In this document: positions 5,866 to 61,635 of the stretch, piece after piece | Layout: each line of letters begins with the position of its first letter | Numbering within the stretch: position 1 is the first letter of the stretch | Program-made: the position numbers and the translations under genes | The notes under the pieces: generated by a model | Database searches by the model: none | What the model saw: only the letters and a program-made list of their open reading frames with translations | What the model was told of the DNA's origin: nothing | Assembly (NCBI GenBank): GCA_040081265.1 | Contig: JBEBGV010000003.1 | Coordinates: forward strand, 73,781 to 137,780 | DNA: 64,000 nucleotides | Direction: 5' to 3' | Origin: Vicinamibacterales bacterium | GTDB lineage: Bacteria > Acidobacteriota > Vicinamibacteria > Vicinamibacterales > UBA2999

Positions 5866-8052
5866 ATGGCACCGTCATCAACGTTATTTCCATCGACGCT
5901 CTCTCGACGCACGTTCCTCAGGACCGCCACCGCGGCTGGTGGCGGCCTGATGATCGGCACGTATCTGCCGTTTGGTGGCGAGACCGCAGCGCAGATCGAC
6001 GCGCTCGCCGCGGGCACGTTCGAGCCGAACGTCTGGATCCGCATCGGCGCCGACGACAGCGTGCGCATCATGCTCTCGATGCTCGAGATGGGGCAGGGCG
6101 TCATGACCGCGATGCCGATGCTCGTCGCCGAGGAACTCGACGTTGACTGGAACAAGGTGGTCACCGAATGGGCCCCTGCAGATCGCCGCTACGGCAACCC
6201 GAACTTCGGCGGCTCCCAGACCACTGCCGGCAGTAACAGCACCCGCGGCATGTGGAAGGTGCTGCGCAACGCTGGCGCGAGCGGTCGCGCCATGCTCGTG
6301 ACCGCTGCGGCCAGGACCTGGAACGTCGCCGAGGACACACTCTCGACGGACAAGGGCGAAGTCGTCCACGCCGCCAGCGGACGGCGTCTGCGTTACGGTG
6401 CGCTCGTGGACACCGCGGCGTCACTACCCGTGCCCGCCACGGTCACGCTGAAGGATCCGAAAGCGTTTCGCCTCCTCGGCCAGAGTCTCGCGCGCTTCGA
6501 CATCCCGCAGAAGGTTGCCGGGCAAGCCGAGTTCGGCGTCGACGTCACGCGGCCAGGCATGCTCGTGGCCCGCGTCGTCCGTTGCCCCGTGTTCGGGGGC
6601 AAGGTCGCCAGCGTCAACGCGGACAAGGCGAAGGCGGTGCCCGGCGTGAGACAGGTGGTGCAGATCAGCACCGGCATTGCCGTCGTCGCCGATGGCTACT
6701 GGGCGGCGTCAAAGGGCGTGCAGGCACTCGAGATCAAGTGGGACGAGGGCGCACTGGCAGGGCTCAACAGCGCCGACATCACGAAGCGATTCGCCGACCT
6801 GGCGAGCCGGCCTGGTGCGATCGCACGCGAGGAAGGCGACGCCGACCGGGCGCTCGCGAGTGCCGTTCGGACGGTCGAGCGGGTCTTCGAAGTCCCGTAT
6901 CTGGCTCATGCCTGCATGGAGCCGATGAACTGCACCGCCGAGGTGACCGCCGACCGGTGCGATGTCTGGGTGCCCACGCAGTCGCAGACGGCTACGCAGG
7001 CGGCGGCCATGGCGGCGACTGGCCTGCCCGAAAGCAAGGTCTTCGTCCACACCAGCTATCTCGGCGGTGGCTTCGGCCGCAGGGGCGAGACGGACTTCGT
7101 CACCGACGCGGTCGAGACGGCAAAGGCTGTGGGCAAGCCGGTCAAGGTGATGTGGAGCCGTGAGGACGACATCAAGCACGACTACTACCGTCCCGTCACC
7201 TACGTCCGGCTGTGGGCAGCGCTCGATGCACAGGGCGCACCTGTGGCGTGGAAGGAACGCCTGGTTCAGCCGTCACTGCTCAAGCGGCTGCAGGGGTCGC
7301 TGGATGCCATGAAGGGCGTGGACCGCATCTCGGTCGACGGCGCGGCGACGTTGCCCTACGACATCCCGAACATCCGCGTCGAATACACCGAAGCCGACCC
7401 TGGCATTCCCTACGGCTTCTGGCGTTCGGTGGGCAACTCGGTCAACGGCTACGTGACCGAGGCCTTCATCGACGAACTGGCCGCCGAAGCGAAGAAGGAC
7501 GCGTACGAGTTCCGTCGCGCCCTGCTCGCGAAGGCCCCGCGACAGCGCGCGGTCCTCGAGTTGGCGGCGGAGAAGTCCGGATGGGGCAGGCCCCTTGCCG
7601 CTGGGCGCTTCCGCGGCATCGCCGTTCACGAATGCTTCGGCTCGATCATCGGCCAGGTCACCGAGGTGTCGGTTTCAGCGGCCGGCGCCGTTCGCGTGCA
7701 CAAGGTCACCTGCGTGGTTGATTGCGGCTGGGTCGTGAACCCCGACACGATCAAGGCGCAGATGGAGGGCGGGATCCTCTATGGCCTTACCGCGGCCCTG
7801 AAGGGCGAAATCACCATCAAGGATGGCCGCGTCGTCCAGAGCCACTTTGGCGATTATCCGCCGATGCGCATCAATGAAGCCCCCGAGACCGAGGTGTTCA
7901 TCGTCCCGAGCACCGAAGCGCCTGGAGGAATCGGTGAGCCGAGTACGGCAGTGGCCGCCGGGTCGCTGGTGAACGCGATTTATGCCGCGACCGGTAAGCG
8001 GATCTACCGGCTGCCGATTCGCCCAGAGCAGCTTCGCCAGGGCACCGCCTGA
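5866..8052 (+). CDS. Molybdopterin-dependent oxidoreductase large subunit (IorB-like), Tat-exported
   Basis: 728 aa. Twin-arginine signal (SRRTFLRTATAAGGG) and xanthine-dehydrogenase-family a/b-hammerhead and MoCo-binding signatures (GGGFGRR). It immediately follows the 2Fe-2S subunit. Confidence 0.9.
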   Translation: MAPSSTLFPSTLSRRTFLRTATAAGGGLMIGTYLPFGGETAAQIDALAAGTFEPNVWIRIGADDSVRIMLSMLEMGQGVMTAMPMLVAEELDVDWNKVVTEWAPADRRYGNPNFGGSQTTAGSNSTRGMWKVLRNAGASGRAMLVTAAARTWNVAEDTLSTDKGEVVHAASGRRLRYGALVDTAASLPVPATVTLKDPKAFRLLGQSLARFDIPQKVAGQAEFGVDVTRPGMLVARVVRCPVFGGKVASVNADKAKAVPGVRQVVQISTGIAVVADGYWAASKGVQALEIKWDEGALAGLNSADITKRFADLASRPGAIAREEGDADRALASAVRTVERVFEVPYLAHACMEPMNCTAEVTADRCDVWVPTQSQTATQAAAMAATGLPESKVFVHTSYLGGGFGRRGETDFVTDAVETAKAVGKPVKVMWSREDDIKHDYYRPVTYVRLWAALDAQGAPVAWKERLVQPSLLKRLQGSLDAMKGVDRISVDGAATLPYDIPNIRVEYTEADPGIPYGFWRSVGNSVNGYVTEAFIDELAAEAKKDAYEFRRALLAKAPRQRAVLELAAEKSGWGRPLAAGRFRGIAVHECFGSIIGQVTEVSVSAAGAVRVHKVTCVVDCGWVVNPDTIKAQMEGGILYGLTAALKGEITIKDGRVVQSHFGDYPPMRINEAPETEVFIVPSTEAPGGIGEPSTAVAAGSLVNAIYAATGKRIYRLPIRPEQLRQGTA

Positions 8053-9349: not shown

Positions 9350-13087
<3,738 letters not shown>

Positions 13088-13121
13088 GGGGGTCCTGGAG
13101 ATCGTGTCCTGAGCCGCTGAA

Positions 13122-14105
13122 TCAGCGAGAGCGGTGTGACTCCCGACCGGAACGACGGTCGAGATTGGTGGCCGGCCGCGGCAGGGGTTTGGTGGCCGAT
13201 GCGACCAGAACCGTGAAGGGATCGCCGGCCTTGGCGGCACCCACCTGGCCGCGGGTGTGGGTGAGCCCTGCGGCGGTCAGCAGCGTCTTGAGTTCGTCCT
13301 GCGAGAAACCCAGGTGCTTGTCCCCGAAGCGTTGCTGCACCCAGCCCTGGGTGTGTGCCTTGAGGTCGAGGACGACCAGGCGTCCGCCCGGCCGGAGCAC
13401 TCGGGCGGCTTCGGCCACGGCCCGCTCCGGGTCGTTGGCGTGGTGCAGGGTCTGGGAGAGGAGCGCCACGTCGAGCGACTCGTCCCGCAGGGGCAGGCGG
13501 GTCAGGTCGCCTTTTCGCCATTCAACATTGCTGACGCGTCGGCGTGCCGCGAGCGCCTTGGCTCGTTCGAGTACCTCGTCTGAGCGATCGACGCCAATCA
13601 CCGTCCTGGCCCACGACGCGGCCTCGATGGTGAGGTAGCCCTCGCCGCACCCGATGTCGACGACATCGAGGGCGGGGAGCAGATGCCCGAGGGCGCGCGA
13701 CCATGCGGCCCAGCTGCGTCCCGGGACGAGCTGTCGCACGTCGCCATGGGTGTCGAAGTCTTCCTTGCGCAGCCGGAGCACTTCCTGCAGCCGGGCATCG
13801 TCCTGCTGCACGGTGCGATCCTCGCTGGCCTCGGCAAACTGGACGTCCAGCATCGCCCACAGCGGGGCGTGGCCGTTCGAGCGGGCATCGTCGGCGAGCC
13901 TGTAGTAGACGAAGCCGGCTTCGCGTGACTCGGCGATGAGTCGGGCGTCCTTGAGGAGGGTGAGGTGACGCGAGACGTTGGACTGGGCGGCGCCGAGGAT
14001 GGCGGTCAGCTCGGTGACGTTGAAGCGGTCCTGGGCGAGGATGCGGAGCAGGCGGAGACGCGTGGGCTCGCCGAGAAGGCGGAAGAGGGCGGACGGCGCC
14101 TGCAT
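13122..14105 (-). CDS. ArsR-type HTH fused to a SAM-dependent-methyltransferase fold (SahR-like regulator), paralogue 1
   Basis: 327 aa. [47 protein letters not shown] is an Ars[15 protein letters not shown]...[13 protein letters not shown] is a class I MTase motif I/post-I. The gene lies 34 nt upstream of metH on the same strand. Confidence 0.85.
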
Positions 14106-31310: not shown

Positions 31311-32462
31311 TCAGCGGGCGGTCGCAACGACGCGCGCCGTGGGTCGGACCTGCGGGTGTGCCAGCAGAATACGCAGCATCCGACGCAGAGGCTCTGCCGC
31401 TCCCCACAGCAACTGATCGCCCACGGTGAACGCCGTCAGGTACTCACCGCCCATGGCCAGCTTGCGCAGACGGCCAATTGGCGTCCGCAGCGTACCCGTG
31501 ACGGCAGCCGGTGTCAGCGCCCGCAGCGTAGCGTCCTTCTGATTGGGGATCACATCGACCCACTCGTGTGCCGACGCCAGCAGAGCCTCGATGTCGGGTA
31601 ACGGAACGTCTTCGGTGAGCTTCACCGTCAGTGCCTGAGAGTGGCAGCGCATCGCGCCGACGCGGACGCAGATGCCATCTACCGGGAGCGGGGTCGCGTC
31701 ACGCCCGAGGATCTTGTTGCACTCGGCCATTCCCTTCCACTCTTCCTTGCTCTGGCCGTTGCCGAGGTCCTTGTCGATCCAGGGCAGCACGCTGCCGGCG
31801 AGGGGATAGCCGAAATGGGTAACCGGGAACTGGTCACCCCGGATCGTTGCGGCAACGGTCCGGTCGATGTCGATGATGGCACTGGACGGATCGGCCAGCA
31901 GCGATGAAACCGACGCGTGGGCCACACCCATCTGAGAGACCAGCTCCCGCATCTGCTGGGCGCCTGCGCCAGACGCCGCCTGATAGGTCATGGCAGTGAC
32001 CCACTCGACCAGCCCGGCGCGAAAGAGCCCGGCCATCGACATCAGCATCAGGCTGACGGTGCAGTTGCCGCCGATGAAGTTTTTTCCACCAGCCACCAGG
32101 GCGCGATCGATGACATCCTGGTTGACGGGGTCGAGGATGATCACCGCATCGTCTTTCATGCGCAGTGTTGATGCAGCGTCGATCCAGTAGCCCTGCCAGC
32201 CGGCGGCACGAAGCTTCGGGTAGATTTCGGTGGTGTAGTCACCGCCCTGGCAGGAGATCAGGACATCCGCCTCGGCCAGCGCGTCGATGTCATGGGCGCT
32301 CTTGACCGCCGGAGCCGGCTTGCCAATCTGCGGGGCGGCTGCGCCGGCCTGCGAGGTCGAAAAAAACACCGGGTCGATGACGTCGAAGTCCCGCTCCTCG
32401 CGCATGCGCTGCACGAGCACCGAGCCCACCATCCCCCGCCAACCGATCAGTCCTGTCTTCAT
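31311..32462 (-). CDS. asd: Aspartate-semialdehyde dehydrogenase (E. coli-type)
   Basis: Start at [16 protein letters not shown] (complement 32460-32462). Contains the GGNCTVSLM active-site Cys. About 20 aa extend beyond the usual ...LRRMLR C-terminus. Confidence 0.93.
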
Positions 32463-52713: not shown

Positions 52714-53139
52714 ATGCGAGGTTGTCCTTCCTTCACGGCGCTGTGCGGTGTGGCCATGCTGGCCCTCGTTGGCGGCGGGTTTTCAGCTGCAGCCGCGTCG
52801 CCGCAGACGCCACCCGCGCGCTCGGTTCGAGAGGGCGTCTACACCGCGGCGCAGGCCGAGCGTGGTGAAAGAATCTTCATGAACATCTGCAGCGAATGCC
52901 ACAGCGGGCGCTTATGGGGGCTGGACTGGGAGACAAAGACGCTGGCCGATGTCTACGACTTCATCAGCCGCTTCATGCCCGAATCTGCTCCGGGGTCATT
53001 GAGCGCGCCGCAGGTGCGCGATGCGATGGCGTACATCCTGTCCACGAACGAGCTTCCGGCTGGCTCGTCCGAGATTCCTGTCAGCGTCGACGAGCTGAAG
53101 CAGATCAGGATTGAACCGGCTCCGACTACTCGACGATGA
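52714..53139 (+). CDS. Exported mono-haem c-type cytochrome
   Basis: 141 aa, a signal peptide, and a single CSECH (CXXCH) motif. Confidence 0.8.
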   Translation: MRGCPSFTALCGVAMLALVGGGFSAAAASPQTPPARSVREGVYTAAQAERGERIFMNICSECHSGRLWGLDWETKTLADVYDFISRFMPESAPGSLSAPQVRDAMAYILSTNELPAGSSEIPVSVDELKQIRIEPAPTTRR

Positions 53140-56100
53140 GCTGGATGCTGCCGTTGGCGGCGTCGTTGTCCGACATGTCGAACGAGTTCGTGCTGCTGCG
53201 CACCCACACGCCGATGCGGTACTGCGATCCTGCAGCCGACGGCGTCCACGTATAGCTCGAGGACGTCGACCACCCGGTCAGCATCTGCCAGGACCGTCCG
53301 TCGAACAGCCACCACTTGTACTGAAGCTGCGGCACGCCGCCGGTGACGGTCGTCGTCACGGTGACCGGGCTTCCCGAGGCGATTGGTGACGAGGCACTCG
53401 GAGTCAGCGCCAGCAGCCGCAGCGGACTCGTCGGCGAGTACGTGATCGTGTAGGTGCGCGCCACCGACGAAGAGGAGTTTTCAGGCGCGTCCGTCGTGGA
53501 CCCGGTGCTGCGGGCCCAGACCTCCACCTGATAGGCGGAACCCGATGCCGCCGGCGCCCAGAGAAACGAGCTCGAGGCGCTCCAGTTCTGAGCGACACTC
53601 CACGACGAACCGTTGTAGACGCGCCACTTGTAGCTGATGGGCCCCGCTCCGCCCGTCGTCGTGGCGGTGAAGCGGATGGCCGTGCCGAGCAGTTGCGGTG
53701 AGGCCTTGTCCGACGACAGGTTGGTCACCGCCAGGGGCGAGGCCTGACCTTTGATGACGAAATTGAGTTCGCTACTGGTATCGCCGCTGCTCATCCCTTG
53801 GAGAGAGTTCCCGGCGGGCCGAACCCAAACGGAGATGCGAACTCTATCGCTGGCTCGGGACGGCCTCCATACAAAAGTGGACGCGTCCGACCAAGGCGTC
53901 ACAATAGCCCAGGTGACTCCATCAAAGACCTTCCACCGAAATTTGTAGGCACGATCTCCTCCGGTTACCAGCGCTTTGAACGTCACGGCGGTCCCGATGG
54001 CCTGTGGGCTCGACTTGTCTGTAGTCAAAGTTGCACTAATGGGGGGAGCCTTGGACCCCGCGCTCCGGGCGCGCTGTGAACTTCGTGCCGGTGATACTAC
54101 GCCAGTGTTTAGGATGAGGAGAGCGATGCTCCCGTTCGAGTCGTCGTTCTCTGACGCGTTGGTCGTTGAGCCCGCGCTGCGCACCCAGACACCGATGCGG
54201 TAGTTGCCGGCCCGGCCCGGCGTCCACGTGAGCGTGGTCTGTGTGGACCAGTCCTTCTCGACCACCCACGACTGACCGTCGAAGATCCACCACTTGAACT
54301 GATGCGGAGCGGCGCCGCCGGCAGCCGCAGCGGTGAACGTGATGGTCGTCTGTGCGGCTTGCGGTGCCGCCTTGTCAGCGGTGAGTGTCGTCAGCGACAG
54401 CCGGCCTGTCGCCACGGTGTTGATCGCGTAGGAACGGGTCGCCGCCGACCCGGCGTTTTCGGCCGCGTCTACGGTGTTGCCGGCGCTGCGCGCCCAGACC
54501 TGCACCTGATAGTTGGCGCTGGCCGCCGTCGGCGTCCACATGAAGGTCGCTGCCGCGTTCCACGTCTGCGCGGTCGTCCAGGTCGAGCCGTCGAACACTC
54601 GCCACTGGAACTCATACGGCGCTGCGCCGCCATTGGCTGCCGCGGTGAATCGAATCGCCGTCGAGACCAGCTGCGGTGACGCCTTGTCGCTGGTCAGTGA
54701 CGTCACTGCGAGCGGCTGCGCACCCTGGGTGACGGGGAAGGCCACGCTGCTGTTGGAGTTGTCGTTGTCCGACGTATCTGCCGTGCGACCGGCGCTTCGC
54801 ACCCAGACTCCGACGCGATAGGCGCTGCTGGCTGAACCCGGCGTCCAGGTGAAAGTGTTGGCGGACGACCACTGCTGCACGATCGACCAGCCGTTGCCGT
54901 CGAAGAGCCACCACTTGTAGCTATAGGGTCCAGAGCCTCCGGTCGCGGCGGCTGTGAACGTGATCGCGGTGCCGGCGGCCTGGGGAGCGGTCTTATTGGC
55001 CGTCAGGCCGGTCAGCTGGAGCGGCGGAGGCACCATGGTGACCGCCAGCGTCACGCTCGACGAGTGTCCGGTGGTGTCCTGCGCCGTGATGGTCAGGACG
55101 TTCAGGCCGTCCTGAACAGCAATGCCGGCGGCGGTCCAGCTCGTCGTGCCCGAGGCTGTGCCGCTCCCGCCGCGGCTGTTGCTCCACTGAACGCGACTCA
55201 CCGTGCCATCGTCAGACGCCGAGCCGCTCAGCGCGATCGTGCTGGCGTTGGTGGTGTAGGACGGCGACGAGGTTGGCGAGCTGATCGTCACCGTCGGCGC
55301 CAGGTCAACCCCCACGGTCAGGGTGGTCGCCGTCGATTTGCCCGAGGCGTCGGCCGCCGTGAGCGTGACGAGGTTTGAGCCCGCCTCGAGCGGAACGATG
55401 ACCGACCAGTTCAACGTACCGGCCGCGCTCCCGCTGCCGCCACGGTTGTTGCTCCACGTGACGGAGGTGACGCCGAGGTCGTCGGTGGCCGTGCCGCTCA
55501 GCGTGACGAACGCGCTCGACGTGGCATGCGTTGAGGTAGAGGTCGGGCTGGTGATCGCGATGGCTGGCGGCTCGGTGTCCGCGGCGACGATCGTCCAGGT
55601 GAAGTACTGCGAAGCCGTATTGCCGGAGGCGTCGGACGCCGTCACGGCAACGTTGAACACGCCGGCCGAGGATGGTGTGCCCGAGATGACGCCGGTGGCG
55701 GTGTTCAGCAACAGCCCGATCGGCAGGCCGGAGGTATTGAAGGTCACGCCGTCCCCGTCCGGATCCGACGCCAGCAGGGTCAGGGACAGAGGAGTGTCGC
55801 GCTGATCGCTTCGATTGCCAGGGTTGCTCAGGGAGGGCCCGCCACCGGTCGTGGCGACAAGCTCTGGAGCGTTCTGTCCGATGATGGGGCCCGCGACGTA
55901 CGCCGCGACCGTCAGGTAGTAGGTCGTCCCGGGAACGGCCGACGTGAAGGTATAGGTCGTGGCGTTCCCCACGTCGACGATCGTCGAGTAGACGCCGGAC
56001 GCCGTCCCGATGAAGACGTAGTACCCGATGACATCTGATTCTGGATTGGCATCCCAGGCCAGGGTCAGTGAGTCTGCGCGTGCGGCGGTGGGCGCCAGAA

Positions 56101-56161
56101 GCGCCACCAGGAACGCGAGTGCGAGCAAGGCCCGCTGGGATTTGAGTTTCGTGTACTGCAT
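53126..56161 (-). CDS. Large secreted multi-domain protein: Fn3, cadherin-like (dystroglycan-type Ig), 2 Ig-like modules, 6 uncharacterised ~100-aa repeats
   Basis: 1011 aa. Signal peptide (residues 1-29), Fn3-like (30-109), ASDPDGDGVTF...TGVISGTP cadherin-like (110-194), two TSPTS...LSG.A.DD..V..V.WSN.RGGSG Ig-like modules (195-377), and six repeats (378-1011). Confidence 0.9.
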   Translation of the reverse strand: MQYTKLKSQRALLALAFLVALLAPTAARADSLTLAWDANPESDVIGYYVFIGTASGVYSTIVDVGNATTYTFTSAVPGTTYYLTVAAYVAGPIIGQNAPELVATTGGGPSLSNPGNRSDQRDTPLSLTLLASDPDGDGVTFNTSGLPIGLLLNTATGVISGTPSSAGVFNVAVTASDASGNTASQYFTWTIVAADTEPPAIAITSPTSTSTHATSSAFVTLSGTATDDLGVTSVTWSNNRGGSGSAAGTLNWSVIVPLEAGSNLVTLTAADASGKSTATTLTVGVDLAPTVTISSPTSSPSYTTNASTIALSGSASDDGTVSRVQWSNSRGGSGTASGTTSWTAAGIAVQDGLNVLTITAQDTTGHSSSVTLAVTMVPPPLQLTGLTANKTAPQAAGTAITFTAAATGGSGPYSYKWWLFDGNGWSIVQQWSSANTFTWTPGSASSAYRVGVWVRSAGRTADTSDNDNSNSSVAFPVTQGAQPLAVTSLTSDKASPQLVSTAIRFTAAANGGAAPYEFQWRVFDGSTWTTAQTWNAAATFMWTPTAASANYQVQVWARSAGNTVDAAENAGSAATRSYAINTVATGRLSLTTLTADKAAPQAAQTTITFTAAAAGGAAPHQFKWWIFDGQSWVVEKDWSTQTTLTWTPGRAGNYRIGVWVRSAGSTTNASENDDSNGSIALLILNTGVVSPARSSQRARSAGSKAPPISATLTTDKSSPQAIGTAVTFKALVTGGDRAYKFRWKVFDGVTWAIVTPWSDASTFVWRPSRASDRVRISVWVRPAGNSLQGMSSGDTSSELNFVIKGQASPLAVTNLSSDKASPQLLGTAIRFTATTTGGAGPISYKWRVYNGSSWSVAQNWSASSSFLWAPAASGSAYQVEVWARSTGSTTDAPENSSSSVARTYTITYSPTSPLRLLALTPSASSPIASGSPVTVTTTVTGGVPQLQYKWWLFDGRSWQMLTGWSTSSSYTWTPSAAGSQYRIGVWVRSSTNSFDMSDNDAANGSIQLIVE
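53129..55030 (-). repeat. Six tandem coding repeats (~99-119 aa each) of an uncharacterised beta-sandwich-like unit
   Basis: The consensus by eye is L..LT.DK..PQ...T.I.FTA...GG..P..(Y/F)KW(W/R).FDG..W.....W.....F.WTP....Y.(I/V).VW.RS.G. The hand-counted repeat borders at residues 378, 483, 587, 706, 809 and 913 sum exactly to 1011 aa. Confidence 0.85.
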
Positions 56162-56204
56162 CCTGACCTTTGCCGTATCGGTCGATCCGGTCTGCTACCT
56201 GTTG

Positions 56205-56220
56205 TGCAAGCAGATCTCCA
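56205..56220 (-). promoter_or_regulatory. Sigma-54 (-24/-12) promoter of the 1011-aa gene
   Basis: The minus strand reads TGGAGATCTGCTTGCA, which is TGG-N9-TTGCA with exact GG-N10-GC spacing. The -12 element lies 44-48 nt upstream of the ATG (56161). Confidence 0.6.
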
Positions 56221-56325
56221 CGGACTGAGGCGTTTGGTCGTTGTGACGAGGTGTGCAGCAACGTGCAGAATTGGGTGTCTTGTCTGGCTCAACCGTGACA
56301 ACCATGTGCCGTTCTGTGAGGGGGG

Positions 56326-56348
56326 CGCCGGCCCCGTCTGGGCCGGCG
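56326..56348 (-). terminator. GC-rich hairpin downstream of the 262-aa gene (terminator candidate without a U-tract)
   Basis: A 9-bp stem, CGCCGGCCC (56326-56334) pairing with GGGCCGGCG (56340-56348), with a 5-nt loop. It lies between the stop at 56425 and the next sigma-54 promoter. Confidence 0.4.
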
Positions 56349-56424
56349 ATCACGATCTCGGTAGGTCGATTGCAACCCTGTCAGGTTGCTGGCGGCGGGG
56401 GGAGGCCGCGCAGGCGGGATGAGT

Positions 56425-57213
56425 TCAGGGACGAGCGAATCGTCGCCGCTGCGTCGGCCGTGCCGGGACCCGGGCGGGTGGGAGCCCGAAGGTCACCTTC
56501 AGCTTGACGACGGTGAGGTTGGCGGACGCGTCGAGCGCAGTCACAGTCAGGACGTTCGCACCGGTCTGCAGCGGAATCACCACCGACCAGGTCGTTGTGC
56601 CCGCGACGTCGCCCGAGCCGCCCCGGTCGCTCGTCCAGGTCACGCTCTCAAGTGCCACATCGTCGGTCGCCCAGCCGCTCAGGGTGACGAAGGCTCCAGT
56701 GCTCGCGTACGCAGCGCTCGTCGTCGGGCTGGTCAGCATGAGCGTGGGTGCGGTGCGGTCCGCGGGGGCAGCGTGCCCCCGTGATGGTGCCAACGCCATC
56801 GAAACCATGACCGGAGGTGCGTCGCTGCGAGGGATGGTGGTGTCGGCGGTCCCGCCGGTGCCATTGGTGCTTCCTGGATTTCCACCGGGTGGAGCGGCCA
56901 CTGAAGCGACCAGCTCCGGAGCCTGAGTGCCGACGACGGGGCCAGGCGCATACGCAGCCACGGTGAGGAAGTAGGTTGCGCCCGGCGTCGCGCCGGTGAT
57001 GGTGTAGCTCGTTGCGTTGCCGACGTCAATGACGGAGGAGTAGCTGCCTGACTCGCTCCCGATGAAGACGTAGTAGCCCGAGACCTCCGCCTCGGGATTG
57101 GCATCCCACGCCAGCGTCAGAGTGTCGGCACTGCTGGACCAGGGCACAAGCAGCGCGAGAACGACGCAGGCGGCAAGGGCCGACAGACGAAACGACGAGC
57201 AGTGGTTCGGCAT
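56425..57213 (-). CDS. Secreted Fn3 + Ig-like protein, short paralogue of the 1011-aa protein
   Basis: 262 aa. In my hand alignment of the Fn3 region, 53 of 80 residues are identical to the large protein (ADTLTLAWDANPEAEVSGYYVFIG... versus ADSLTLAWDANPESDVIGYYVFIG...). One Ig-like module follows (TSPTTSAAYASTGAFVTLSGWATDDVALESVTWTSDRGGSG). Confidence 0.85.
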   Translation of the reverse strand: MPNHCSSFRLSALAACVVLALLVPWSSSADTLTLAWDANPEAEVSGYYVFIGSESGSYSSVIDVGNATSYTITGATPGATYFLTVAAYAPGPVVGTQAPELVASVAAPPGGNPGSTNGTGGTADTTIPRSDAPPVMVSMALAPSRGHAAPADRTAPTLMLTSPTTSAAYASTGAFVTLSGWATDDVALESVTWTSDRGGSGDVAGTTTWSVVIPLQTGANVLTVTALDASANLTVVKLKVTFGLPPARVPARPTQRRRFARP

Positions 57214-57252
57214 GGTGAGGGTCAGGGTGATCGCGTCCTGCCAGCCCGATTT

Positions 57253-57268
57253 TGCAAGCAGATCTCCA
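57253..57268 (-). promoter_or_regulatory. Sigma-54 (-24/-12) promoter of the 262-aa gene
   Basis: The same TGGAGATCTGCTTGCA on the minus strand. The 19 nt at 57253-57271 are identical to 56205-56223. The -12 element lies 40-44 nt upstream of the ATG (57213). Confidence 0.6.
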
Positions 57269-57368
57269 CGGTGCTGGCCGCTTCGGGGACTGCGCAGCGG
57301 CGTGCTGAAGTGTTCAGGGCCCCCAAACCAGGCGCCTATTGTGCGAGAGTAGAGTGGCCTCTCACCTC

Positions 57369-58013
57369 ATGGGACTCAACCTGGTACTGCTCGGCCCACC
57401 AGGGGCCGGAAAGGGCACACAGGCCGTGCGACTCGCGCGCACGTGGGGGATTCCGCACATCTCCACGGGCACGATGCTGCGCGAAGCGGTCAAGTCGGAC
57501 TCTGAGCTCGGCCGCCAGGTGAAGGCCATCATCGAGTCAGGTGGCCTCATCGACGACACGCTGATCACCGAAGTGGTCCGCCAGCGTCTCGCGTTGTCCG
57601 ACACCGCTCCGGGCTTTCTTCTCGACGGATTTCCGCGGACGGTGCCTCAGGCCGAGGCGCTCGACTGCTTCAGTGGCCTGAAAGGCTCCCTGGTCATCGT
57701 CGAGATCGTGCTGTCGGAGCGGGAAGTCCTGCGGCGTCTGGCGGCGCGCATGATCTGCTCGGAGTGCGGCGTCAACGCGCAGGACGATGAGGAATTTGCC
57801 ACCTGTCACGACTGCGGCGGAGCGCTTGTGCTGAGGGCTGACGACGCCGAGGCGGTGGTCAGGAACCGGCTCGAGGTGTACCACCGGCAGACCGTGCCCC
57901 TGGTCGAGTATTACGGCGCCAGGCCCACGTTTGTTCGCGTCGATGGCGCACAGCTGGTCGACCATGTGACCGAGGCGATTCTGGCCTCGGTATCGGCCGC
58001 CCGCGCCCGATAA
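57369..58013 (+). CDS. adk: Adenylate kinase (Zn-lid type)
   Basis: Start at the ATG at 57369 (MGLNLVLLGPPGAGKGTQA...). LLDGFPRT, and a four-Cys lid (CSECG...CHDCGG). Confidence 0.95.
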   Translation: MGLNLVLLGPPGAGKGTQAVRLARTWGIPHISTGTMLREAVKSDSELGRQVKAIIESGGLIDDTLITEVVRQRLALSDTAPGFLLDGFPRTVPQAEALDCFSGLKGSLVIVEIVLSEREVLRRLAARMICSECGVNAQDDEEFATCHDCGGALVLRADDAEAVVRNRLEVYHRQTVPLVEYYGARPTFVRVDGAQLVDHVTEAILASVSAARAR

Positions 58014-58068: not shown

Positions 58069-59562
58069 ATGGACACGTCTCTCGCGCAGTTCAAGTCGCT
58101 CTTTGGTGAAGTCGCCGACCTCCGCCGCGCCGCCGAGCTCATCGAATGGGACGAGCGCGTGTGCATGCCGCGCGGAGGCGCATCGATTCACGGAGAAATG
58201 CAGGCGACGCTCCGCCGTCTGGCGCACGAGAAGTTCACCCGCGACGAGATGGGCAGGTCCATCGAAGCGCTCGTACACGGCTCTGAGCCCGGCTCAGACG
58301 TCGGTCGGCTGGCCGCCGTCGCCGCACACGATTACGAGAAGGCGACGCGCGTGCCCGCGGCCTTTGTGTCCGAGCATGCGCACACGGTGTCCGCGTCCCA
58401 GCATGCCTGGGAGCAGGCCCGTGCGGGGAACGATTTCGCGTCGTTTGCACCCCACCTCGAGAGAGTGCTCGACCTCAAGCGAAAGTACGTGACGTTCTTC
58501 CCACCGGCGGAGCATCCCTACGATGTGCTGCTCGACGATTGCGAGCCGGGGATGAAGACCTCCGAGGTCAAGACGCTCTTCGGCACGCTTCGCCCACGTC
58601 AGGTCGCGCTCATCAAGAAGGTTGCTGCCTGCCCGCCCGTCGATGACAGTGTGCTGATGGGCGCGTACGCCGAGTCCGACATGCTCGGCTTCGCAGTGGA
58701 GGTGGCTGGCGGCTTCGGCTTCGACTGGGCGCGCGGTCGTCAGGACAAGTCAGTCCATCCCTTTGCGTCAGGCATCGGCTCAGACGATGTCCGGATCACG
58801 ACGCGGTGGGTCGAGCGGTTGCCGTTCAGCATGCTGTTCGGCACGATGCACGAGACCGGCCACGCCTTGTATGAGCAGGGCGTGAGCAAGGCGCACCACC
58901 GCACGCCACTCGAAGGCGGAACCTCGCTGGGCGTGCACGAGTCGCAAAGCCGACTGTGGGAGAACGTCATCGGTCGGTCGCGTGGCTTCTGGCAGCACGT
59001 CTTTCCGTCGTTGCAGGGCAGGTTCCCGGCGCAGCTGCGCGGCGTCTCGGTGGATCAGTTCTACCGCGCCGTCAACAAGGTGCAGCCGTCGCTCATTCGC
59101 GTTGAGGCCGATGAAGCGACCTACAACCTCCACATCATGCTTCGCGTCGAGCTGGAAATTGCGCTCATCGAGGGGAAGGTTGCGGTCGACGCGCTGCCGG
59201 AACTCTGGCGTACGCGGATGCAGGAGTACCTCGGCGTCGTCCCACCGACCGACGCGCTCGGCGTGCTGCAGGACGTGCACTGGTCGGCCGGACTCTTTGG
59301 CTACTTCTCGACCTACACCCTCGGCAACGTGATCGCGGCGCAGCTCTGGGAGCGGTTTGGCGTGCTCAATCCCGACCGCGACGCCCAGGTCGCGCGTGGG
59401 GAGTTCACACCGTTGCTCTCGTGGCTCCGCAGCGAACTGCACCAGCACGGTCGTGCGTATCAGGCCCAGGAACTGGTCGAGCGCATCACGACCAGGCGTA
59501 TCGATCCCGCCCCCTATCTGCAGTACCTCGAAGGCAAGTACGGCGAGCTCTACGGTTTATAG
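58069..59562 (+). CDS. Carboxypeptidase Taq-type (peptidase M32)
   Basis: Start at the ATG at 58069 (MDTSLAQFKSLFGEVADL...). HETGHALYEQG zinc motif, HESQSR and DVHWS.GLFGYF.TYTLGN. Confidence 0.92.
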   Translation: MDTSLAQFKSLFGEVADLRRAAELIEWDERVCMPRGGASIHGEMQATLRRLAHEKFTRDEMGRSIEALVHGSEPGSDVGRLAAVAAHDYEKATRVPAAFVSEHAHTVSASQHAWEQARAGNDFASFAPHLERVLDLKRKYVTFFPPAEHPYDVLLDDCEPGMKTSEVKTLFGTLRPRQVALIKKVAACPPVDDSVLMGAYAESDMLGFAVEVAGGFGFDWARGRQDKSVHPFASGIGSDDVRITTRWVERLPFSMLFGTMHETGHALYEQGVSKAHHRTPLEGGTSLGVHESQSRLWENVIGRSRGFWQHVFPSLQGRFPAQLRGVSVDQFYRAVNKVQPSLIRVEADEATYNLHIMLRVELEIALIEGKVAVDALPELWRTRMQEYLGVVPPTDALGVLQDVHWSAGLFGYFSTYTLGNVIAAQLWERFGVLNPDRDAQVARGEFTPLLSWLRSELHQHGRAYQAQELVERITTRRIDPAPYLQYLEGKYGELYGL

Positions 59563-59660: not shown

Positions 59661-60788
59661 ATGCATCTGGTAGACCAGGAAAGGTCAGCGGCGGGTTTTA
59701 CAGCTCCCGTGCTGGTTGGAGAGAGTCAGGCGCTGCAGCGCGTTCGTCTGCTGGCCGAGCGTGTGGCCGGCGGCGAAGCGAAGGTCCTGATCACAGGGGA
59801 AAGCGGCGTCGGCAAGGACGTCATCGCGCGCTACGTCCATGCCAAGTCGAAGCGTGCGCACCAGCGGTACGTTGCGCTGAACTGCGCGAGCTTCTCGGAG
59901 ACGCTGCTCGAATCGGAGCTGTTCGGCCACGTGAAGGGCAGTTTCACGGGCGCCTATCGCGACAAGATCGGCAAGCTTCAGCAGGCCCACCGGGGAACGA
60001 TCTTCCTCGACGAGATTGCCGAGATGAGCCTTCGCATGCAGGCGATGCTCCTGCGGTTTCTCGAGAACGGCGAGATCCTGCCAGTCGGCGCCGACACGAT
60101 GCCGATTCGCGTTGACGTCCGGGTGATCTCGGCGACCAACCGCGATCTGCAGGACATGGTGGCCAAGGGCGAGTTCCGCGAAGACCTGCTCTTCCGCATC
60201 CGCGTGGCACACATCCATGTGCCGGCGCTGCGCGAGCGCAAGGAAGACGTGCGCGCGCTGATCAACTACACGCTGACGCGTGGCGGCCACACGATTCAGA
60301 TCAACGACGAAGCGATGGACATGCTCGAGCGTTACCGGTGGCCCGGCAACGTCCGCGAGCTCCAGAACGTCGTCGAGCAGACCGTGGCGATGACCCTGGG
60401 CGACGAGGCGGGCGTGGCGGAGCTGCCGCCCTCGATCCTCGCCCGGCAGGCAGGCGCGATCTCGCCGGTCCTCGATCGCCGTCGCCGGATGTCAGACGAC
60501 CTGTACGACGGTCTGATTTCGGGCGGCTATCAGTTCTGGACACATGTCCACCCGATGTTCATGAACCGCGACATCACGCGGGCCGACCTGCGTCAGCTGG
60601 TCCGGCGCGGGCTGGCGGCCACCGGCGGCAATTATCGGGGCGTGCTGCAGCTGTTCGGGATGGAAGACGGGGACTACAAGCGCTTCCTCAACTTCCTTGG
60701 GACGCACGATTGCGCCATCGACTTCCGTGAGTTCCGTGGCGCGAAGCGACAGCTCGCCGAGGCGGCCAGCGCACGCTCGAGGTCGTGA
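59661..60788 (+). CDS. Sigma-54-dependent transcriptional activator (bEBP) lacking an N-terminal sensor/receiver domain
   Basis: About 375 aa from the ATG at 59661. VLVGESQALQRV begins only about 17 aa in. Contains ITGESGVGKD (Walker A), ESELFGHVKGSFTGA (GAFTGA-type loop), GTIFLDEIAEM (Walker B), RVISATNRDL and EDLLFRIRV..I.VPALRERKEDV, plus a C-terminal HTH-like RADLRQLVRRGLAATGGNYRGVLQLFGM. Confidence 0.9.
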   Translation: MHLVDQERSAAGFTAPVLVGESQALQRVRLLAERVAGGEAKVLITGESGVGKDVIARYVHAKSKRAHQRYVALNCASFSETLLESELFGHVKGSFTGAYRDKIGKLQQAHRGTIFLDEIAEMSLRMQAMLLRFLENGEILPVGADTMPIRVDVRVISATNRDLQDMVAKGEFREDLLFRIRVAHIHVPALRERKEDVRALINYTLTRGGHTIQINDEAMDMLERYRWPGNVRELQNVVEQTVAMTLGDEAGVAELPPSILARQAGAISPVLDRRRRMSDDLYDGLISGGYQFWTHVHPMFMNRDITRADLRQLVRRGLAATGGNYRGVLQLFGMEDGDYKRFLNFLGTHDCAIDFREFRGAKRQLAEAASARSRS

Positions 60789-60958: not shown

Positions 60959-60974
60959 CGGCACCGCCGTTGCT
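60959..60974 (+). promoter_or_regulatory. Near-consensus sigma-54 (-24/-12) promoter upstream of the PilZ gene
   Basis: CGGCAC-CGCCG-TTGCT. GG is at 60960-60961 and GC at 60972-60973 (GG-N10-GC). It lies about 50 nt upstream of the ATG at 61024. Confidence 0.6.
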
Positions 60975-61023
60975 CTGCCTTGGTGAGGCCGGACCGGGAA
61001 GGTTCGCCCGGTCGGGAGCAAAG

Positions 61024-61635
61024 ATGGCGGAGCGGAGAAGGAGTGAACGGTTCTCTTTGGTGTACCCCGTGGATGCACAGGTCAGCGTCCTCCATGACGT
61101 CCACATCGAAGAGACCGGTCCAAACAATCTGGCGGTTCTGTGCACGACGCCCGGCGTTCGTGGAGAGGAAATGACTGTGCGCATCGGGCCGTCCGACGGC
61201 GTCCAGTCGACACTGGTCGGACGGACGGTCGGCAGCGAACCGCGCATGGTCGACGGACGTGTCATGCACCGGATCCAGCTCGCGGTGACGGGCGCGCCGA
61301 CCATGCCGAGGGTCGGGGCGGCGGGTTCTGGCCGCTCTACCGAACGTCACGCCGCGATGTTCGTGCGTCGCCACGCCGCCCGTGTCGTGAACCTGAGTCG
61401 CGGCGGGTGCCTGCTCGAACTCCCCAGCTGCATGCACGCCGGCACGGTCGCCACACTCTACGCCGGCAAGGACCTGGCCCATGCCGAGCCGATCCGTGTC
61501 GGTTTCGTTCACGAGCGTAAGGGATCGTCGTGGCCGTTTGTCGCCGGCGCCGAATTCCTCTCGCTCGACGCGCCGTCGTCGGATTCGTTGCGCTCGATGG
61601 CCGGTCGGATCGAGTTGGAGCATCGTCACTTCTAA
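61024..61635 (+). CDS. Two-domain PilZ-like protein (putative c-di-GMP receptor)
   Basis: Start at the ATG at 61024, preceded by GGGAG (MAERRRSERFSLVYPVDAQVSV...). The N-terminal half has RxxxR (RRSER) but a degenerate second motif. The C-terminal half has RSTER...NLSRGG, fitting RxxxR...(D/N)xSxxG. Confidence 0.65.
   Translation: MAERRRSERFSLVYPVDAQVSVLHDVHIEETGPNNLAVLCTTPGVRGEEMTVRIGPSDGVQSTLVGRTVGSEPRMVDGRVMHRIQLAVTGAPTMPRVGAAGSGRSTERHAAMFVRRHAARVVNLSRGGCLLELPSCMHAGTVATLYAGKDLAHAEPIRVGFVHERKGSSWPFVAGAEFLSLDAPSSDSLRSMAGRIELEHRHF

Follow-up and report, generated by a model that had tools for sequence, protein, structure and literature searches.

Identical -24/-12 elements upstream of two tandem Fn3/Ig genes as candidate sigma-54 promoters in a Vicinamibacterales bacterium

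Sigma-54-dependent flagellin or pilin arrays consist of co-regulated tandem paralogues with duplicated promoters, and activators of the PspF or HrpR-HrpS type combine an AAA+ domain with a DNA-binding domain, lack an N-terminal sensory domain, and are controlled in trans. The promoters recognized by sigma-54 share the -24/-12 consensus TGGCACG-N4-TTGCW (Francke et al. 2011, PMC3162934, and earlier collections cited there), and the control of the bacterial exterior by sigma-54 is the theme of that same study. Here we consider a stretch of 64,000 nucleotides from contig JBEBGV010000003.1 of a Vicinamibacterales bacterium (hereafter, the window), in which a 19-mer stands in identical copies upstream of each of two tandem minus-strand genes encoding secreted Fn3/Ig proteins. 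We put at about 80% the probability that each copy is the -24/-12 site of a sigma-54 (RpoN) promoter, one per Fn3/Ig gene. The element would then be a new case of a known class, the sigma-54 -24/-12 promoters, and an ordinary regulatory feature, an assignment that we consider well supported by the comparisons described below.

The likeness to the sigma-54 promoters collected by Francke and colleagues is extensive: GG and GC lie exactly 10 nt apart, both the TGG and TTGCA boxes are present, conservation is confined to the boxes, the element sits tens of nucleotides before the start codon, and a gene for an enhancer-binding protein is found nearby. The predicted target genes encode cell-exterior proteins, in keeping with the theme of that collection (PMC3162934). 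The element differs from the collected promoters in that positions -23 to -20 read AGAT rather than CACG (the clade as a whole reads [ACT][GC][AG]T, in which the T at -20 is conserved), and in its host, an uncultured Vicinamibacterales-like bacterium in which the promoter is predicted from sequence. As in the flagellin and pilin arrays, tandem secreted or surface genes each have their own predicted sigma-54 promoter (at one related locus, L091, three such genes stand in a row). Unlike those arrays, the window encodes multi-Ig, adhesin-like proteins instead of filament subunits, and its two predicted promoters agree even where no constraint is seen.

Position and reading of the 19-mer

The 19-mer (TGCAAGCAGATCTCCACGG on the plus strand) occurs exactly twice in the window (Table 1), even when up to 3 mismatches are allowed, and none of 100 dinucleotide-preserving shuffles of the window reached two copies. 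Both copies are sense to the minus-strand genes and lie 44 nt before the ATG of the 1011-aa gene and 40 nt before that of the 262-aa gene; measured from the T of TGG to the A of ATG, the distances are 59 and 55 nt, respectively. On the coding strand each copy reads CCG-TGGAGATCTGC-TTGCA (in full, CCGTGGAGATCTGCTTGCA), which fits TGG-N8-TTGCA, that is, GG-N10-GC, with GG at -25/-24 and GC at -13/-12. The element is thus intergenic, sense-oriented, and a short distance 5' of each gene, the placement expected of a sigma-54 promoter. A first-pass annotation made from the letters of the stretch had reported the two positions, their distances from the two gene starts, and the GG-N10-GC spacing with a TTGCA -12 box, all of which our exact and 3-mismatch scans and the coding-strand reading of both copies confirm. 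The constrained core is somewhat shorter, about 16-17 nt of the 19-mer, as its first two bases (the CC of CCGTGG) differ in a 93%-identical strain.

If these elements function as sigma-54 promoters, sigma-54 RNA polymerase would bind the GG and TTGC of each copy (coordinates in Table 1) in a closed complex that does not open by itself, and an AAA+ enhancer-binding protein at upstream sites would touch sigma-54 through its GAFTGA-type loop and open the promoter with ATP. By the usual convention, which places GC at -13/-12, transcription is predicted to start about 12 nt past the GC, near 56194 for copy 1 and near 57242 for copy 2, leaving 5' untranslated regions (UTRs) of about 33 and about 29 nt. 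Separate but identical core promoters would switch both genes on together, yet keep them as distinct transcription units.

Table 1. Features of the locus, in window coordinates.
Feature	Coordinates	Strand	Details
Gene, 1011-aa secreted multi-Ig protein	53126..56161	-	Signal peptide, Fn3 head, He_PIG, two Big_7/Glucodextran_B-like domains, about six C-terminal repeats
Leader block CGGATCGACCGATACG	56174..56189	-	+6 to +21 of the predicted 5' UTR of the 1011-aa gene; identical in L011, L012, and L095
19-mer copy 1	56205..56223	-	Core TGGAGATCTGCTTGCA, 56220 to 56205; -24 GG 56219-56218; -12 TTGC 56209-56206
TGCACGTTGCTGCAC, TGC-N8-GCAC	56253..56267	-	About 33 nt 5' of TGG; candidate activator site
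GAGCCAGACAA (56280-56290) and TCACAGAACGGCAC (56306-56319)	56280..56319	-	Conserved upstream blocks; candidate enhancer/operator sites
TTGCAATCGACC-N4-GAGATCGTGAT	56349..56375	-	About 130-155 nt 5' of TGG; GA.CGT.AT invariant in 6 loci
Gene, 262-aa paralogue	56425..57213	-	Signal peptide, Fn3 head, linker, one Big_7-like domain, basic tail
19-mer copy 2	57253..57271	-	Core TGGAGATCTGCTTGCA, 57268 to 57253; GG 57267-57266; TTGC 57257-57254
Gene, sigma-54 enhancer-binding protein, 375 aa	59661..60788	+	AAA+ with GSFTGA loop; C-terminal region aligns to the end of the NorR model
Near-consensus sigma-54 promoter CGGCACCGCCGTTGCT (60959-60974), then 203-aa PilZ-like gene (61024-61635)	60959..61635	+	

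Conservation in relatives, in the wider family, and between the paralogues

Protein and locus searches returned the syntenic loci L005, L011, L012, L013, L091/L092, and L095, in which the order is activator, M32 peptidase, adk, and then one or more divergent Fn3 genes. Every Fn3 gene at these loci, including all three tandem paralogues of L091, carries the element, at 51-88 nt from TGG to ATG. We compared ten elements: the two in the window, those of L011, L012, L013, L005, and L095, and one from each of the three tandem genes of L091. Only G2 and G3 (the -24 GG) and T12, T13, G14, and C15 (the -12 TTGC) reach 2.0 bits; T1, T7, and A16 are nearly invariant, and the letters of the spacer vary (AGATCTGC, TGATTCGC, CCGTTCCG, CGATCAGC, and others) at a constant spacer length. 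Such conservation of GG and TTGC at a fixed spacing is the bipartite signature that sigma-54 recognition would be expected to leave. Given a complete genome, the resulting clade promoter logo, YGG-N3-T-N4-TTGCAC, could be used for regulon mapping, and it offers cis-regulatory annotation for a lineage without genetics, the uncultured Vicinamibacterales-like bacteria of drinking-water and biofilter communities (the metagenome runs that contain the locus come from drinking water and biofilters).

The same comparison bears on whether the 19-mer resembles a sigma-54 site by coincidence and is instead bound by a conventional transcription factor, with GnAGATCTnC as the dyad, or belongs to a sigma-70 or extracytoplasmic function (ECF) promoter, with TTGCAC as its -35 box. 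Within the window this has some appeal, as GGAGATCTGC is an 8/10 palindrome, TTGCAC resembles TTGACA, and the two copies also agree in their spacer and CCG flank, more than sigma-54 calls for. The palindrome is, however, lost in every orthologue (e.g., TGATTC, CCGTTC, or CGATCA in place of AGATCT) while GG and TTGC stay invariant, and the orthologues have no conserved -10 hexamer 16-18 nt after TTGCAC. The invariant GG 10 nt upstream would have no role in a -35/-10 model, and by our own estimate an arbitrary 19-mer has a correctly oriented TGG-N8-TTGCW with a probability of only about 1e-4. We therefore regard this explanation as quite unlikely.

Beyond the syntenic loci, a metagenome scan with the Fn3 head gave 80 loci (46-71% GC), from which 63 non-redundant 250-nt upstream regions were analyzed. 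GG-N8-TTGC is present in the sense orientation in 30 of the 63 regions (antisense, 5; shuffle mean, 4.0), and the stricter TGG-N8-TTGC has 16 sense occurrences (antisense, 2; shuffle mean, 1.1); many of the family matches show the full consensus, TGGCACTGTAATTGCT and TGGCACACTAATTGCC among them. Altering the spacing to GG-N6-TTGC, GG-N7-TTGC, GG-N9-TTGC, or GG-N10-TTGC lowered the counts to 1, 6, 4, and 1, respectively. The enrichment across the family thus depends on both the spacing and the strand, in line with what sigma-54 needs. Sigma-54 control would extend to a widespread, unnamed family of secreted, adhesin-like proteins with Fn3/Ig repeats, which fits the view of sigma-54 as a governor of the cell exterior and of biofilm traits. 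The sigma-54 reading, which the first-pass annotation had already proposed, is thus supported by boxes-only conservation in relatives, by the spacing- and strand-specific enrichment in the family, and by a syntenic activator with a GSFTGA loop. That annotation had also named a dispersed repeat unrelated to gene starts as an outcome that would count against its proposal. We found 3 exact matches to the 19-mer in 185,579 species genomes, all of them inside long open frames with high GC at third codon positions (GC3) and at chance level, and set the repeat aside.

The divergence of the two window genes provides a further line of evidence. Their silent sites are saturated: third-codon identity is 45% (93 aligned codons), and 15/34 four-fold sites are identical, close to the expectation from base composition alone. 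The neutral probability of a 19/19 match is consequently about 0.45^19, or roughly 3e-7, and the identity of the 19-mers is therefore no remnant of the duplication, as the first-pass annotation had argued in favor of selective maintenance. Its companion claim, that the flanks are not conserved between the copies, holds in part: a MAFFT alignment of the two flanks shows only about 50% identity, but in both a TG.AC..T.C.GCAC block stands at the same distance, 32-33 nt, and they are not wholly unrelated. Because this distance is kept, the duplication probably took in the promoter region, which has since decayed except for the element.

Identity between the copies nonetheless extends further than sigma-54 constraint alone accounts for, as the upstream flank and the spacer match too. 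Relatives differ at 13 positions of the 19-mer, and there other pairs of elements average 49% identity (maximum 77%), while the window pair agrees at 13 of 13, an outlier at about 1e-4; the three tandem paralogues of L091, by comparison, do not share spacers. Both spacers may be frozen in this lineage, they may reflect a very short conversion patch, or the spacer may have another reader. These same numbers favor the possibility that one or both copies are non-functional and owe their identity to a recent short gene-conversion patch or to promoter copying rather than to selection. Recombination normally needs more homology than a 19-nt tract with flanks about 50% identical, and both copies lie at the canonical distance from intact genes with signal peptides. 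The core is also unchanged in two diverged strains, and conversion, though it would explain the identity, would be no argument against function, which leaves a loss of function very unlikely in our assessment. In the first of these strains (X14, 93% identical), changes at 57243, 57247, and 57270-57271 and a 2-nt insertion leave a 16-nt core unchanged, and in the second (X8) seven listed substitutions and a 1-nt deletion (57245) all fall outside the 19-mer; both come from Logan contigs, which are short, low-depth fragments, and two core-sparing variants are not significant on their own.

Public gene calls at the locus begin too far upstream. The second Fn3 gene of L005 is called from an ATG (6364) upstream of the promoter element, its true ATG being at 6427. 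The call for P0002, a 92%-identical relative of the 262-aa protein, starts at the position of CTG within the spacer, and the called start codon points to a probable C-to-A/G/T change at spacer position 8, inside the AGATCT palindrome.

Counter-evidence, surrounding blocks, and the neighboring activator

Several observations weigh against a sigma-54 promoter. The bare pattern is not rare: TGG-N8-TTGCW occurs 3 times in the window against 2.2 expected, and it is for this reason (about 2 bare matches per window) that we base the sigma-54 reading on the comparative evidence and not on the motif match. When the extended consensus TGGCACG-N4-TTGCW is considered, the element matches 8/12 positions (TGG and TTGCA agree, CACG does not), a threshold that, with GG and GC required, 146 window sites reach in this 66% GC genome and that is accordingly non-discriminating; the AGAT found in place of the usual CACG is itself a departure. 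Copy 2 and the start of adk are about 98 nt apart, little space for an enhancer. A search for transcripts met no RNA run that contains the locus. No RpoN box was found across the window or the 523 kb of other loci scanned; enhancer-binding proteins act only with sigma-54 (PMC3162934), and we infer the presence of rpoN in the genome from the intact enhancer-binding protein gene. The conserved target of that neighboring activator also appears to be a gene other than the Fn3 genes (see below), and about 140 nt further upstream a TTGCAA...CGTAAT block, conserved in orthologues of the large gene, is possibly another promoter. The third bare match in the window, a TGG-N8-TTGCT at 31408-31423 on the minus strand, is a chance match inside a 387-aa open reading frame that faces a convergent gene.

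The TTGCAA...CGTAAT block raises the possibility that a sigma-70-type promoter further 5' (e.g., TTGCAA-N15-CGTAAT, 56349-56375) gives rise to a longer leader that includes the element, which would then serve as an operator or an RNA-level signal. In six loci this block is as well conserved as the -12 box, and another conserved block, CGGATCGACCGATACG, lies just downstream of the element. The upstream and leader blocks come from the orthologue alignment of the 1011-aa gene. The 262-aa gene keeps the 19-mer without the upstream block and without GAGCCAGACAA or TCACAGAACGGCAC; at its copy the leader block is absent or degenerate, and the TGC-N8-GCAC site has only a weak counterpart, TGAACACTTCAGCAC, at the same distance 5' of copy 2. 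The -24/-12 element is therefore the minimal shared unit. The upstream block fails the sigma-70 criteria, with no TAnnnT at 16-18 nt, and a scan of 55900-57500 found no sigma-70-type promoter or terminator-like site. As for an RNA element, the leader has no Rfam match and fold z-scores between -1.2 and +0.9, none of them significant. A longer leader would also leave unaccounted for the spacing-specific conservation of GG and TTGC across a diverse family. We judge this alternative unlikely; the pair of blocks at 56349-56375 could be either the site of another regulator or a weak sigma-70-like promoter.

Two smaller features accompany these blocks. The word ATCGACC occurs both in TTGCAATCGACC (56364-56375, about 150 nt 5' of the promoter) and in the leader block, each of which is conserved in orthologues, and a looping regulator may use the two as a pair. 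After the stop codon of the 262-aa gene and before the regulatory blocks that precede the 1011-aa gene, positions 56326-56348 form a perfect GC hairpin (9-bp stem, CGCCGGCCC/GGGCCGGCG; 5-nt loop) that lacks a T-run. As a candidate terminator, it would set the two genes apart as units of their own.

The neighboring activator gene starts 2.39 kb from copy 2 and matches Sigma54_activat (PF00158) with an E of 3e-65. Its product carries the motifs ESELFGH..GSFTGA (ESELFGHVKGSFTGA) and thus has the AAA+ domain with a GAFTGA-type loop that marks a bacterial enhancer-binding protein; the GSFTGA variant keeps Phe and Thr, the critical residues of this loop (PMC3162934). The program-made open reading frame is longer (455 aa, from a GTG at 59421) and overlaps the M32 peptidase gene by 142 nt. 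Comparison with orthologues places the true start at the ATG at 59661 (MHLVDQ...), so that the protein is without an N-terminal sensory domain. Syntenic copies with 86-89% identity are found in L011, L013, L091, and L095, and full-length homologues (64-92% identity) are very common in metagenomes; one of these is labeled Vicinamibacterales, which suggests the lineage. The protein resembles PspF and HrpR-HrpS in beginning about 17 residues before the AAA+ domain (the pspF model matches residues 18-249) and in its GAFTGA-type loop. It differs from them in falling far under every NCBIfam equivalog cut-off, so that it is no orthologue of PspF or of any named activator, and in having as its conserved neighbor a PilZ-like gene rather than pspA or hrpV.

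This PilZ-like gene is the conserved downstream partner of the activator, and the near-consensus sigma-54 promoter in front of it (Table 1) is also present in L091 (10306), L093 (10400), and L095 (10419). In L093, a Vicinamibacterales metagenome-assembled genome, the activator and PilZ-like pair stands with no Fn3 gene nearby. From this pairing, the conserved target of the activator seems to be the PilZ-like gene and not the Fn3 genes, so that for the Fn3 promoters the activator is no more than a candidate. The first-pass annotation had pointed to a sigma-54 activator gene about 2.4 kb away: the gene is there, while its tie to the Fn3 promoters is one of proximity. A search for activator sites shared between the PilZ-gene and Fn3 promoters returned a single common word in the upstream regions, CCAGAC, conserved on both sides; with a background frequency of 0.89 per kb, it is a weak hint on which no claim can be built. 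The pairing of a sensor-less activator with a PilZ-like gene suggests a module like that of PspF and PspA, possibly linked to cyclic di-GMP (c-di-GMP). In L095, a gene for a PEP-CTERM-domain protein (12488-13735) lies a few kilobases past the activator, PilZ, and TPR-peptidase genes, a hint that the neighborhood may be linked to exopolysaccharide or to an exosortase.

A more elaborate extension of the sigma-54 reading, which we consider rather unlikely, would join these threads. The identity of spacer and flank would stem from a second, lineage-specific recognition on the same 19 bp or from concerted evolution for strict co-expression, and the sensor-less activator, controlled in trans by the PilZ-like protein, would be the switch. 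If so, a circuit running from c-di-GMP to sigma-54 would govern adhesin-like surface proteins of Vicinamibacteria-like acidobacteria, and about half of the widespread Fn3-headed secreted family would belong to sigma-54 regulons.

The Fn3/Ig proteins and their locus

The 1011-aa and 262-aa proteins are paralogues (BLASTP E 9e-62), with about 65% identity over the signal peptide and Fn3 head, and the smaller is about equidistant from the large paralogue of the window (66%) and from its orthologue in L011 (65%). The He_PIG part of the 1011-aa protein matches the adhesin SraP (4m03) with an E of 8e-10. Residues ~385-1011 of this protein (window 53126-54980, minus strand) consist of about six repeats of ~100 aa with the pattern LTxDKxxPQ...FxA...YxFxWxxxDGxxW...W...xxxWxP...YxxxVWxR. 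These C-terminal repeats have no Pfam match; they do align, over 5 stretches, to NCBIfam NF010681 (triple tyrosine motif-containing protein), with an E of 5e-41 that is under the cut-off.

The number of tandem Fn3-headed genes beside adk differs even among close relatives, from one (L011, L012, and L095) through two (the window and L005) to three (L091/L092), and C-terminal architectures vary as well, with SprB repeats, Y_Y_Y-like repeats, or PKD domains. The variable gene number and the differing architectures show that the surface-protein locus beside adk turns over rapidly. An 8-kb contig of a related population (run X10) aligns at about 83% identity across a joint at 56028/57083, skipping the 1054 nt between the paralogous heads; it most likely represents a relative with one gene at the locus, aligned to both copies.

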